Below, piece after piece: positions 17,333-35,140 of a DNA stretch of 35,140 nt. Position 1 is the stretch's first letter, and the number at the start of each line of letters is the position of its first letter. The position numbers and the translations under genes were made by a program. This DNA comes from Escherichia coli (lineage in GTDB: Bacteria; Pseudomonadota; Gammaproteobacteria; Enterobacterales; Enterobacteriaceae), in assembly GCF_003334405.1 (NCBI RefSeq), contig NZ_QOWM01000027.1; one strand, 5' to 3'. The notes beneath the pieces are model-generated. The model worked only from the letters and a program-made list of their open reading frames with translations, did no database searches and was not told the origin of the DNA.

Positions 17333-17848
17333 CCGCTGACACAGGTCTGCGGCTGGAATTGCCTGATGCGCTACGCTTATCAGGCCTACGAGTTCAGTGC
17401 TCTACGTAGGCCGGATAAGGCGTTCACGCCGCATCCGGCATAAACTACAGCTGGCAGACAGCCGCTGCGAAGGCATTTTTGCACATGGCGTTGGAGGAAT
17501 GCGCGGTTGTTGGCGGGAATGAATCACGGTAGCCGCTGACACAGATCAGCGGCTGGAATTGCCTGATGCGCTACGCTTATCAGGCCTACGAGTTCAGTGC
17601 TCTACGTAGGCCGGATAAGGCGTTCACGCCGCATCCGGCATAAACTACAGCTGGCAGACAGCCGCTGCGAAGGCATTTTTGCACATGGCGTTGGAGGAAT
17701 GCGCGGTTGTTGGCGGGAATGAATCACGGTAGCCGCTGACACAGATCAGCGGCTGGAATTGCCTGATGCGCTACGCTTATCAGGCCTACGAGTTCAGTGC
17801 TCTACGTAGGCCGGATAAGGCGTTCACGCCGCATCCGGCATAAACTAA
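17249..17848. repeat. Three tandem 200-bp repeat units, each = last ~84 bp of cynR + a small hairpin + a REP pair
   Basis: ctggcagaca at 17251, 17451, 17651 and gaatcacggtagccgctgac at 17321, 17521, 17721 (period exactly 200). Units 2 and 3 are identical; unit 1 (the functional cynR 3' end) differs at ~7 positions. Confidence 0.9.
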
Positions 17849-32251: not shown

Positions 32252-32627
32252 TGTGTTTACTCCTGATTAGCTATGTGTATTTGGCAACGCCTGATATGTC
32301 ATCGCGGCAAAACGCGTCCATTGAATATAGCCAATATTTAAACCACCCGATCCAGCCCCAACATGCCGCGAGCCTGAATGAAACAGAGCAGCAACGTTCC
32401 CCATAAGGCGAGCGCCTGTAAGTGTGATATTTGCTATCTGTAAAAGACTAAAATCGGCAAAACTGATGATCTTTTCACGTAGACAAATAGTTATCTACAC
32501 AACGTCAATAAGGGCATATTCCTCAAAGATAATGTCCATTTCTGCCGACACACTCATATTCAGATTGCCCCACTCCCTGGGGCTTAAATCTCTTACTATT
32601 CACCGTTGCAGGCGTTTCAAATGCGCA

Positions 32628-34010
32628 TCAACCTGCCACACTCCCCCACACCAGTTGCCCTTTATGGAACGTTGCGGTTCTCGGCGAGATACGCGCCACC
32701 GCCTCGGCGGAACAGGAGGCGTCCACCAGCACAAAGCTGGCGTCATCCTGCGCTTTTGGCCATACACGCTCGCCTTTTTCATTCAGCGGCAATACATCGC
32801 CAGTGGCTAAAAACAGCGAGCGGGAGAGGTTCTGTTCGTTAGGACGAATATAGAGCTGCGCGTACAGATTGGCTTTTTCCAGCATGTCGCCCAGACCATA
32901 AGGCGACCAGTGGTCGATAACGCTGTCAGTGCCAGTCATCACTTTTACGCCTTTGTCGTGCAACTGTTTGAGCGGCATATGCAGCGTGCCAATCGGCACC
33001 GTCGAGGCGATAGAAATTTGTTGCACCACCATCCGGTTCGCCAGTTCATCTACCTGTTGCTCGTTGAGCGTTGCCAGCGCAAAGGCGTGACTGATGGTCA
33101 GCTTGCCCTTCAGCTGTGGCGTTTTCTCTACCGTTTCAACCATATAATTGATGGCTGCCACGCCTGCCGGAGTGGTTTCGTGCAGGTGAATATCGACGCC
33201 TTTGTCGTAGTCCAGCGCAATCTGGAACATGGTGTCGAGGGATTTTTCCATCGCGCCATCAACACTGGTCGGGTCCAGGCCGCCGACGTAATGCGCCCCC
33301 GCCTGCATCGCTTCACGCATTAAAGGTTCAGATTTCGACAGCAGCAAACCGTGCTGCGGGAAGGCGACGATTTCACACTCAAAGCCCGCCTGACGTCGCG
33401 CCAGCACCGCCTGCAAATTTTGCAGATTTTTCAGGCCGGAAACCGGTTCGATATTGCAGTGGCTGCGGGCAATGGTGGTGCCTTTCGACTGCAATAAATC
33501 AATCAGTTTTTCTGCCCGCTCCTGAGTGTACGGTTGCAGTTCCGGCAGCATTTTCTGCTCGAGTTTGATCATGTCCTGGATGGTGGTGCCTGCCGGACGA
33601 TTGAGCGAGCGCCACGGCCCGCCGTAAAAGGTTTTGTCGAGATGAATATGCATGTCGCGGGTGGTGGGCAGCATCAGCTTACCGCCAGCGTCATAGTGCG
33701 GCAGCGTGGCGTCCGGATGCAGCTTGTTCTCGCGCAGGGCGACAATTTTGCCGTCCTGAATCTCCACGGTCTGGCGCGCCGTGCGGGTCTGCACCGCCAC
33801 GCCATTTTCGTAGTCAAAACCGGTTTCCAGCAGCACGTTATCGAGATAGTAATGCGGGTCAGTGATTTTCATGGTGTTGTTCGCTTCGCAGTTTAGGGTG
33901 CCAGCTACCGCCGCATGGGCGAGCGGCACAGAGGTACCAAACAGCGCGGCGGCGGTGACCATCTTACCGCTCTGGCTCAGAAATTCACGGCGGCTATTGC
34001 TTTCTTTCAT
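32628..34010 (-). CDS. yahJ: Amidohydrolase-family putative deaminase with a Tat signal peptide
   Basis: 460-aa ORF MKESNSRREFLSQSGKMVTAAALFGTSVPLAHAAVAG...: twin-arginine motif SRREFL, hydrophobic stretch, AxA cleavage site; metal-dependent amidohydrolase HxH-like motif (RDMHIHLD). Confidence 0.85.
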   Translation of the reverse strand: MKESNSRREFLSQSGKMVTAAALFGTSVPLAHAAVAGTLNCEANNTMKITDPHYYLDNVLLETGFDYENGVAVQTRTARQTVEIQDGKIVALRENKLHPDATLPHYDAGGKLMLPTTRDMHIHLDKTFYGGPWRSLNRPAGTTIQDMIKLEQKMLPELQPYTQERAEKLIDLLQSKGTTIARSHCNIEPVSGLKNLQNLQAVLARRQAGFECEIVAFPQHGLLLSKSEPLMREAMQAGAHYVGGLDPTSVDGAMEKSLDTMFQIALDYDKGVDIHLHETTPAGVAAINYMVETVEKTPQLKGKLTISHAFALATLNEQQVDELANRMVVQQISIASTVPIGTLHMPLKQLHDKGVKVMTGTDSVIDHWSPYGLGDMLEKANLYAQLYIRPNEQNLSRSLFLATGDVLPLNEKGERVWPKAQDDASFVLVDASCSAEAVARISPRTATFHKGQLVWGSVAG

Positions 34011-34019
34011 CTTACGTCC

Positions 34020-34970
34020 TTACGTTTTAATAATATGAGTGCCCGTTTCGCCGCGCAGCGCCGCAGGCAGGCATTCCGGCGTGGTGATAATCACTTCTTT
34101 GCCGCCTTGTTCTAAAAATGTCAGGCTGGCGATGATTTTTGGCAACATGCTGCCGGGCGGGAAATGCCCTTCCTGCATATAGCGGGTCATGGTGGCAATA
34201 TCCACCCGATCGAGCGCCTGCTGCTGCGGTTTGCCAAAGTGAATACACACTTTTTCGACGCCAGTGGTGATCACAAGAATGTCGGCGTGAATTTCACGGG
34301 CCAGCAGCGCGGTAGAGAGATCTTTGTCGATAACCGCGTCCACGCTTTGGTAATCTCCCGCGTCAGTACGCACTACCGGAATTCCACCGCCGCCCGCGCC
34401 AATTACGACAAAACCTTGTTGGATCAGCGCTTTAATGGCAGGTGCTTCGACAATACGTTTCGGTTCCGGCGAGGCGACCACGCGGCGATAGCCCCGCCCG
34501 GCATCTTCAACAAAACACCAGTCAGGGTTTGCCTTTTGTAATTCGTCACGCTGGCTGTCACTAAAGAATGCGCCGATGGGCTTGGTGGGATGGGCAAAAC
34601 CTGGATCGTTTTTATCCACTTCCACCTGAGTCACCACGGTGACGGCTTTCTTCTCGCCGTGACGCGCCAGCCGGTTATTCAGCGCCTGTTGGATCAGATA
34701 GCCGATGCCGCCCTGCGTATCTGCCACACAGTTCGCCAGCGGCGTTAAGGGCAGCCCTTCGCGCTTGTGGGCAATCTCCGCACGGCGTAAATCCAGCCCG
34801 ACCTGCGGCCCGTTGCCGTGGGTCAGCACAATGTCGTAATCGGAAGCCAGCATTTCCAGCACCGTATCGGCGACGGCTTTCACCGCCTCCGCCTGATGCT
34901 CAATCGACTGGCTGGCGTTATCTTTGATAATGCTGTTGCCACCAATGGCAACGACCACAAGCTCTTTCAT
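34020..34970 (-). CDS. yahI: Carbamate kinase-like protein
   Basis: 316-aa ORF MKELVVVAIGGNSIIKDNASQSIEHQAEAVKAVADTVLEMLASDYDIVLTHGNGPQVG..., amino-acid-kinase/carbamate-kinase family; 9-bp gap to yahJ suggests co-transcription. Confidence 0.88.
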   Translation of the reverse strand: MKELVVVAIGGNSIIKDNASQSIEHQAEAVKAVADTVLEMLASDYDIVLTHGNGPQVGLDLRRAEIAHKREGLPLTPLANCVADTQGGIGYLIQQALNNRLARHGEKKAVTVVTQVEVDKNDPGFAHPTKPIGAFFSDSQRDELQKANPDWCFVEDAGRGYRRVVASPEPKRIVEAPAIKALIQQGFVVIGAGGGGIPVVRTDAGDYQSVDAVIDKDLSTALLAREIHADILVITTGVEKVCIHFGKPQQQALDRVDIATMTRYMQEGHFPPGSMLPKIIASLTFLEQGGKEVIITTPECLPAALRGETGTHIIKT

Positions 34971-35020: not shown

Positions 35021-35140
35021 GCCTGATGCGCTACGCTTATCAGGCCTACAATTCTCGCGCCACTCGTAGGCCGGATAAGGCGTTCACGCCGCATCCGGCA
35101 ATGGTGACAAATGCCTGATGCGCTACGCTTATCAGGCCTA
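35021..35140. repeat. REP elements upstream of yahI (run off the window end)
   Basis: gcctgatgcgctacgcttatcaggcctac ... gtaggccggataaggcgttcacgccgcatccggc ... gcctgatgcgctacgcttatcaggccta. Confidence 0.85.

Follow-up and report, generated by a model that had tools for sequence, protein, structure and literature searches.

Why would a gene for a cytoplasmic carbamate kinase be followed, after only a few base pairs, by a gene for a deaminase-like enzyme addressed to the periplasm? The question is posed by yahI and yahJ, neighboring genes in a 35,140-nt stretch of Escherichia coli DNA (contig NZ_QOWM01000027.1 of assembly GCF_003334405.1), which is called the window below. A preliminary description made from the window sequence had remarked on this pairing of compartments. 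The twin-arginine translocation (Tat) signal of YahJ was upheld, but the pairing was not: the conserved partners of the kinase gene are yahE, yahF and yahG, which lie beyond the window. The odd-compartment puzzle is mostly an effect of where the window ends. The two genes, their families and the Tat signal were already catalogued. New here are the connection of yahI with a Yah-type oxamic transcarbamylase paralogue, the wide spread of the Yah module across phyla, the absence from K-12 of a permease at the 'yahH' slot and the variable-deaminase pattern.

yahE, yahF, yahG and yahI match the allFGHK gene set

In E. coli K-12 MG1655 one strand carries, in order, yahD, yahE, yahF, yahG, a repetitive extragenic palindromic (REP) array called 'yahH', yahI and yahJ, with yahDEFG located just past the window end (locus L001). 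The encoded families are ankyrin repeats (YahD), DUF2877 (YahE), FdrA-like (YahF) and DUF1116 (YahG). Divergent from these genes are yahC, which encodes a DUF1097 membrane protein (L001 19814-20311), and the LysR gene yahB. The preliminary description had likened yahI and yahJ to carbamate-kinase-containing catabolic clusters for nitrogenous compounds and had proposed a look at the context upstream. That context contains yahD and yahEFG, the latter paralogous to All genes, and the likeness can now be made specific, because yahEFG plus yahI give an allFGHK-type gene set composed of AllF, AllG and AllH homologues and a carbamate kinase. The identities are 38% (YahF/AllF), 45% (YahG/AllG), 25% (YahE/AllH) and 38% (YahI/AllK, also called YbcF).

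AllFGH was shown in 2024 to be an oxamic transcarbamylase that converts oxalurate plus phosphate to carbamoyl phosphate plus oxamate; the three genes are co-operonic with the carbamate kinase gene allK and all three All subunits are needed for activity (PMC11326118). This enzyme pair serves the oxamate branch of anaerobic allantoin degradation, so that the larger yah operon looks like the final, ATP-yielding part of allantoin breakdown. The paralogy of YahEFG with AllHFG and of YahI with AllK therefore points to cytoplasmic YahEFG as the natural partner of the kinase, and on this sequence evidence YahI is probably the kinase partner of YahEFG. What the Yah and All systems have in common is a single operon that unites four protein families (FdrA-like, DUF1116/AllG, DUF2877/AllH and carbamate kinase) and a presumed logic in which an acylurea and phosphate give carbamoyl phosphate and then ATP. 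They differ in that the Yah proteins, only 25-45% identical to their All counterparts, form a separate orthologous group. Moreover, the Yah cluster also encodes an ankyrin-repeat protein, an exported amidohydrolase and, in most genera, an AGZA-like permease, and no allantoin genes lie next to it.

A side result of the AllFGH study is that a ∆allFGH strain was partly complemented by allFG (7%) or allGH (16%) alone (PMC11326118, Table 3). A paralogous YahE or YahF could supply the missing subunit in these strains.

YahI is a carbamate-kinase family protein encoded directly upstream of yahJ

YahI matches Pfam AA_kinase PF00696 (5e-23, residues 4-296) and scores 649 bits against the NCBIfam carbamate-kinase subfamily PRK12352, for which the cut-off is 266. 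The motifs are all kept: GGN10-12, HGNGPQVG51-58, GGGGIP193-198, DKD215-217 and GSMLPK273-278. The nearest solved relative is the Pyrococcus furiosus carbamate kinase 1e19 (6e-83), which aligns end to end. The Pfam and PRK12352 matches together with the full motif set bear out the earlier placement of YahI in the carbamate-kinase family.

The 2.8-kb stretch that holds both genes matches E. coli K-12 MG1655 at 100% identity. RefSeq annotates yahI there as a carbamate kinase family protein and yahJ as an amidohydrolase family protein; as had been stated, the genes themselves are known. At least 80% of the stretch is present in 5035 of the 5426 complete E. coli genomes, and a 108-nt block within yahJ is present in 5043 of the 5426. 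Our literature searches found no biochemical assignment for either gene, and a 2024 review of the y-ome has both among the uncharacterized E. coli genes (PMC11551758), in agreement with the statement of the preliminary description that no substrate is assigned.

The 9-bp spacing noted earlier between the two genes was confirmed by the open reading frame (ORF) listing and the sequence (34011-34019; coding strand ACG-TAA-GGA-CGT-AAG-ATG), and translational coupling of yahI and yahJ is likely. The proposal of a single operon also holds as probable co-transcription, given that yahI lies directly upstream of yahJ on the same strand in 40 of 83 loci (see below). Scans of the coding strand between yahD and yahJ showed nothing that resembles a promoter or a terminator, although such scans are weak evidence. 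Ribosome profiling of enterohemorrhagic E. coli (EHEC) handled yahDEFGIJ as one operon, with ribosome footprints over yahH (PMC4765031). Note that YahI-YahJ fusion proteins of 677-780 aa (P0003-P0005 and P0008) were rejected as real, each being present in a single contig only. At the sole fusion junction inspected, that of P0003, the 9-bp spacer is read through as poly-lysine, and this suggests that the fusions arose as artefacts of assembly or frameshift.

YahJ resembles AtzC and cytosine deaminase

Profile and structure-based homology searches support the earlier view that YahJ has a metal-dependent amidohydrolase/deaminase fold. The protein matches Pfam Amidohydro_3/Amidohydro_1 and scores 713 bits against NCBIfam PRK06846 (cut-off 447). 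Its closest solved relatives are the AtzC-like protein 6nbo from Burkholderia (2e-43), AtzC (4e-30) and cytosine deaminases (1e-15 to 1e-20). The alignment and the AlphaFold model were based on 25 diverse homologues. The model has a predicted local distance difference test score of 88.2, with residues 1-45 unstructured, and Foldseek searches with it gave template modeling scores of 0.88 to 6nbo, 0.85 to AtzC and 0.75-0.79 to CodA.

Residues H121, H123, D125, K126, Q219, H275, H277 and D362 are invariant among the 25 homologues and H308 is about 90% conserved. YahJ H121, H123, H275 and D362 align with the AtzC zinc ligands His60, His62, His217 and Asp303, whereas H308, Q219, K126 and H277 align with AtzC His249 (essential), Gln160, Lys65 and His219; the roles of the AtzC residues are taken from PMC4577212. 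YahJ would share with AtzC and CodA the (beta/alpha)8 fold, the HxH/H/D mononuclear metal site and the catalytic His and Gln. Through K126 and H277 YahJ has the Lys and His of AtzC at the positions of CodA Thr66 and Glu217. In subtype III amidohydrolases the HxH pair belongs to strand 1, the single His ligand to strand 5, the Asp to strand 8 and the catalytic His to strand 6. The equivalent of AtzC Trp309 is W368. AtzC Asn304 is replaced by Ser363, at a position that varies across the family.

These alignments and the model place YahJ among the subtype III (mononuclear-metal) amidohydrolases of the AtzC/CodA cluster. Enzymes of the CodA cluster catalyze hydrolytic substitution on amino-oxo pyrimidines and s-triazines (PMC12828455), and we lean toward deamination or dealkylamination of a heterocycle as the activity of YahJ. 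That YahJ is a true orthologue of AtzC or of cytosine deaminase was considered and rejected: the identity to these enzymes is only 21-29%, the score is 101 bits against the cytosine-deaminase cut-off of 438 bits and one pocket residue differs. Unlike AtzC, YahJ is common in Enterobacterales that lack an atrazine pathway.

YahJ carries a conserved twin-arginine signal

The N-terminal twin-arginine signal SRREFL...AHA seen by the preliminary description has AHA at residues 31-33 and a mildly hydrophobic h-region (best 12-residue hydrophobicity about 1.6). Its features, a [S/N/G/Q]RRxF[L/I] motif, an h-region and an AxA site, are kept in 81 of 82 YahJ orthologue ORFs (58-98% identity), which span Enterobacterales, Aeromonas, Shewanella, Halomonas, Rhizobiales and Rhodobacterales (Gamma- and Alphaproteobacteria). 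Such conservation is far beyond chance. A Tat-type signal is also found on the more distant YahJ homologues of Pasteurella and Shinella. Family members of 45% identity or less are mostly without a signal peptide, so export seems to characterize only part of the family. YahJ bears the Tat signal plus a linker of about 15 residues, whereas AtzC and CodA are cytoplasmic enzymes.

The signal motifs make Tat export of YahJ very likely. The YahJ signal peptide is said to have been found by Tullman-Ercek et al. in 2007 to direct Tat-dependent export. The SRRxFLK-type signal, the AxA site and folding and metal binding before export would be shared with cofactor-containing Tat substrates such as CueO, SufI and AmiA/AmiC; what sets YahJ apart is that it is the sole amidohydrolase-superfamily member on two published E. 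coli Tat substrate lists, PMC7549933 and PMC3027627, where it is given as a predicted substrate. A ∆yahJ derivative of an extraintestinal pathogenic E. coli strain was slightly outcompeted in mice (competitive index 0.70, p = 0.02; PMC7549933).

Gene content of YahJ orthologue loci

We compared 83 YahJ-orthologue loci, 80 from a scan of one genome per species and three from single look-ups. At the 40 loci that have yahI directly upstream of yahJ the intergenic gap has a median of 13 nt (range -8 to 141), and yahF and yahG are also visible at 38 of them. A 515-aa membrane protein is encoded between yahG and yahI at 27 of these 38, whereas ten (Escherichia, Pseudocitrobacter, Kluyvera, Klebsiella and Raoultella) lack this gene and carry yahC. 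At another 36 of the 83 loci none of the yah-cluster genes tested lies within 10 kb of yahJ, and at seven a gene for a YahD-like ankyrin protein is alone nearby, accompanied in four by YahB.

Three alphaproteobacterial loci encode, beside Tat-YahJ, a YahD-like ankyrin protein with a Sec or lipoprotein signal of its own (L062 8007-8798, L064 11429-12106 and L067 12416-13093). Enterobacterial YahD is without a signal peptide. One idea raised by these loci is that YahD may meet YahJ in the periplasm, possibly by hitch-hiking through Tat; the ankyrin protein may bind YahJ as a Tat chaperone or hitch-hiking partner.

The Yah module is a separate orthologous group found in several phyla

The module was surveyed by following the 515-aa protein, a putative permease, into other phyla; the comparison as a whole covered roughly 95 loci. 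A Yah-type cassette composed of an ankyrin protein, an AllH-like protein, YahF-type and YahG-type proteins, the permease and usually a YahI-type kinase was found in Brevibacillus, Paenibacillus, Cytobacillus, Janthinobacterium, Bosea, Pasteurella and Photobacterium, that is, from Firmicutes to Proteobacteria. In some cases the ankyrin protein carries a fused C-terminal extension, some 190 residues long, that by eye resembles tetratricopeptide repeats. Identities were compared in Brevibacillus, Janthinobacterium, Bosea, Pasteurella and Paenibacillus. The YahF-type proteins are 61-83% identical to E. coli YahF versus 35-38% to AllF, the YahG-type proteins 71-90% identical to YahG versus 46-48% to AllG and the kinases, where present, 46-93% identical to YahI versus 33-40% to AllK. 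By these identities the Yah type appears as an orthologous group of its own, widely distributed and separate from All.

The enzyme that accompanies the module varies. Modules with Tat-YahJ occur in Enterobacterales and Aeromonas, and that of Pasteurella has a Tat-YahJ of 48% identity. Bosea has a signal-less YahJ-like protein (30% identity) and Brevibacillus a 152-aa protein of the cytidine-deaminase fold together with an allantoin-permease-like NCS1 transporter and a PucR regulator. Paenibacillus and Cytobacillus modules have an M20 peptidase, or an isochorismatase with an NCS2 permease. In Shinella a Tat-YahJ of 46% identity adjoins the same permease family and AllFGH-like genes are absent. 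YahJ is a variable accessory of the Yah module rather than a fixed mate of the kinase, because some modules lack YahJ and 43 of the 83 YahJ loci lack the module.

One E. coli strain has, beside its aerobactin genes, a second copy of yahD-E-F-G, permease and kinase (L088 5424-12540). An isochorismatase-yahEFG-kinase-permease set has been described in the tkt1 island of the avian pathogenic E. coli strain APEC O1 (PMC3349570).

The 'yahH' slot

The yahG-yahI gap of K-12 holds four tandem REP units of about 93 nt each (L001 14721-15080), for which the only Rfam match is to the REP-derived naRNA4 (78 bits). This slot is the position of the 515-aa permease gene in 28 clusters of other genera, the 28th permease-bearing locus being cut by a contig end. 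Public sources name the protein 'xanthine permease' or 'AGZA family', and these names are the sole basis of the permease label: no Pfam match (even at E <= 10), NCBIfam match or solved relative was found by sequence, and the protein is not similar to E. coli YbbY. None of about 40 yah clusters has both yahC and the permease, and in the Escherichia/Klebsiella-type variant yahC may replace the transporter.

Coordinates and other features of the locus

The features of the locus are listed in Table 1; the limits of the two ORFs are identical to those of the preliminary description.

Table 1. Features of the yahI-yahJ locus in window coordinates
Feature	Position	Strand	Remarks
yahJ ORF	32628..34010	(-)	460 aa
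HIHLDK of yahJ	33633..33650	(-)	H121 and H123, predicted metal ligands; K126, equivalent of AtzC-type Lys65
YahJ twin-arginine signal peptide	33912..34010	(-)	residues 1-33, MKESNSRREFLSQSGKMVTAAALFGTSVPLAHA; predicted cleavage after AHA
SRREFLS twin-arginine consensus motif	33975..33995	(-)	YahJ residues 6-12
yahI-yahJ junction	34011..34025	(-)	yahI TAA overlapped by AAGGA Shine-Dalgarno, 9-bp spacer, yahJ ATG
yahI ORF	34020..34970	(-)	316 aa
REP/bacterial interspersed mosaic element (BIME) array start ('yahH', REP23)	35021..35140	.	in yahG-yahI gap; array continues past window end

The 29-nt REP sequence found here also occurs elsewhere in the window, as three exact copies 200 nt apart (17361-17789). 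The 376-bp spacer between yahJ and yahK contains a 75-nt fragment that RefSeq treats as a pseudogene ('hypothetical protein, incomplete'; window 32338-32412, L001 12039-12113). A rare yahJ allele (P0013 and similar) has an in-frame 108-bp deletion (window 33300-33407) between 9-bp direct repeats, TGCAGGCGG. The deletion takes out the FPQHG active-site motif, and the block is missing in about four of 5043 complete genomes.

A proposed pathway and the evidence that opposes it

From the observed order of the genes, the families of their products, the catalytic and signal motifs, which are intact, and the comparative distribution we infer a scheme of operon structure, enzymatic activities, export and flow from the YahJ product to YahEFG. 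In this scheme yahI and yahJ would be the last two genes of a yahD-E-F-G-(REP)-I-J transcription unit, probably controlled by the divergent LysR regulator YahB. YahEFG, a cytoplasmic three-subunit carbamoyltransferase, would make carbamoyl phosphate from an oxalurate-like N-acylurea, and YahI would act catabolically to convert carbamoyl phosphate plus ADP to ATP, CO2 and NH3. YahJ would be folded and loaded with metal in the cytoplasm and then exported by Tat. In the periplasm it would act on an amino-oxo N-heterocycle of the pyrimidine or s-triazine type, from which it would hydrolyze off an amino or alkylamino substituent with release of ammonia. The oxo product would be imported, in most genera via the nucleobase-type permease whose gene lies between yahG and yahI; the E. 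coli K-12 cluster has yahC instead of a permease gene. After ring opening by an enzyme encoded outside the cluster, the imported product would feed YahEFG and YahI.

The arginine and agmatine deiminase pathways follow the same logic: a hydrolase deaminates the substrate, a carbamoyltransferase acts by phosphorolysis, a carbamate kinase yields ATP and the pathway has a transporter of its own. All parts but the kinase are non-homologous, so the resemblance is one of analogy only. Moreover, deamination in the Yah pathway would be periplasmic and its intermediate an acylurea rather than an alkylurea.

Several findings weigh against this scheme. In E. coli, AllFGH is not replaced by its Yah paralogues in vivo: ∆allF, ∆allG and ∆allFGH strains make zero oxamate despite an intact yahEFG (PMC11326118), and hence YahEFG is either silent under those conditions or acts on a different substrate. 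YahI falls slightly below the cut-off of the arcC equivalog TIGR00746 (346.2 versus 358.25 bits), for which reason we treat it as a family member and do not term it an ArcC equivalog. No yahE is detectable in 11 clusters of Enterobacter, Lelliottia, Leclercia, Silvania and Aeromonas (L003, L020-L027, L032, L036 and L044), where the yahD-yahF gap is too short for the gene. The permease is absent from E. coli K-12, in which tblastn found no remnant of it. The cluster encodes no ring-opening enzyme, so that the route from a cyclic product of deamination to an acyclic acylurea lacks a step.

Other findings strain the connection of YahJ to the rest. At 43 of the 83 loci yahI, yahF and yahG are absent within 10 kb of yahJ, and at most of the 36 loci devoid of the yah-cluster genes tested the sole recurrent neighbor is a LysR gene. 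Many Yah modules are without any deaminase; that of Janthinobacterium has no accessory hydrolase and so no YahJ, and the aerobactin-linked E. coli copy lacks yahJ although its kinase is 93% identical to YahI. A common pathway is suggested by the recurrence at the module of deaminase-type genes of different folds, by the adjacency of YahJ and the permease in Shinella and by the tight yahI-yahJ spacing. On balance, we put the case that YahJ and YahEFG/YahI serve the same pathway at slightly short of even. The explanation as a whole (operon tail, YahEFG/YahI catabolism and exported YahJ deaminase) seems about evenly poised between right and wrong. Its boldest form, in which the Yah cluster breaks down an amidine or a nucleobase-like amino-heterocycle by a route not described before and conserves energy in doing so, is speculative and on present evidence rather unlikely; that route would combine a Tat-exported AtzC-like deaminase, product import by a new branch of nucleobase-type permeases, phosphorolysis of the resulting acylurea by an ankyrin-assisted carbamoyltransferase of the AllFGH type and ATP harvest by YahI, in analogy to the arginine deiminase pathway but with unrelated components.

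Alternative explanations

The strongest competitor, though one we think unlikely to be right, is that YahJ is independent of YahI and YahEFG. It would then work by itself in the periplasm under LysR control, as a deaminase that scavenges ammonia from an external amino-heterocycle or detoxifies this compound, and in Enterobacterales its gene would simply have become attached to the Yah module at the 3' end. The 36 loci without yah-cluster genes, mostly with a LysR neighbor only, argue for independence and come from Serratia, Photorhabdus, Rahnella, Pantoea, Rhizobiales, Paracoccus and Halomonas; Shewanella has YahJ alone, and in Janthinobacterium and the second E. coli copy the module is complete without it. 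This view must contend with YahJ-family genes that adjoin the module or the permease in different lineages at 30%, 46%, 48% and at least 68% identity. It must also contend with a non-homologous deaminase in the same position in Brevibacillus and with yahI-yahJ gaps of 1-16 nt in most Enterobacterales.

Loss of the transporter, with a REP array in its place, might instead mean that the K-12 cluster is a cryptic or decaying remnant with no present physiological role. The absence from K-12 of the permease of about 28 other clusters, and of any remnant found, fits decay, as do the four tandem REP units that fill the yahG-yahI gap, the failure of yahEFG to substitute for allFGH and the existence of rare in-frame yahJ deletion alleles. 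We nevertheless regard decay as improbable. The genes are intact in about 93% of the 5426 complete E. coli genomes, mostly at 95-100% identity, and only about four genomes have the yahJ deletion; the 36-aa in-frame deletion was in fact rejected as a sign of decay, being too rare (5039 versus 5043 genomes). The permease-less yahC form is common to Pseudocitrobacter, Kluyvera, Klebsiella and Raoultella and therefore seems an old, maintained variant. Both the EHEC ribosome footprints over the yahH region (PMC4765031) and the small fitness cost of ∆yahJ in mice (PMC7549933) also speak against decay.

The Tat-like motif might fail as an export signal and leave YahJ in the cytoplasm beside YahI, as the mostly signal-less family members of 45% identity or less could suggest. 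This is very improbable, given that SRRxFL, the h-region and AxA are kept in all but one of the 82 orthologues while the linker that follows varies, that residues 1-45 are unstructured in the model and that YahJ is on the published Tat substrate lists (PMC7549933, PMC3027627). Least credible of all is an anabolic YahI that makes carbamoyl phosphate with no ATP harvest, like the P. furiosus carbamate-kinase-like enzyme: although 1e19 is the nearest solved relative and the iJO1366 metabolic model assigns yahI to a carbamate kinase reaction that is reversible, carAB cannot be dispensed with on minimal media even though yahI, arcC and yqeA are present, the authors call the reaction unrealistic and the conserved linkage to a transcarbamylase-like module and permease points to catabolism.

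Significance

The genes from yahC through yahM make up one of the dense uncharacterized y-ome clusters left in E. coli K-12, and the link of yahI to an oxamic transcarbamylase paralogue is a concrete, assayable hypothesis for six genes together. If the proposed pathway fails, the pair reduces to an ordinary kinase paralogue beside an exported hydrolase. If it is true, gut and soil bacteria would have a new ATP-yielding pathway for nitrogen-rich compounds, and YahJ would be a rare periplasmic member of the cytosine-deaminase/AtzC enzyme group. The pathway would then bear on the anaerobic energy and nitrogen economy of these bacteria and possibly, given the defect of the ∆yahJ strain in mice, on host colonization.

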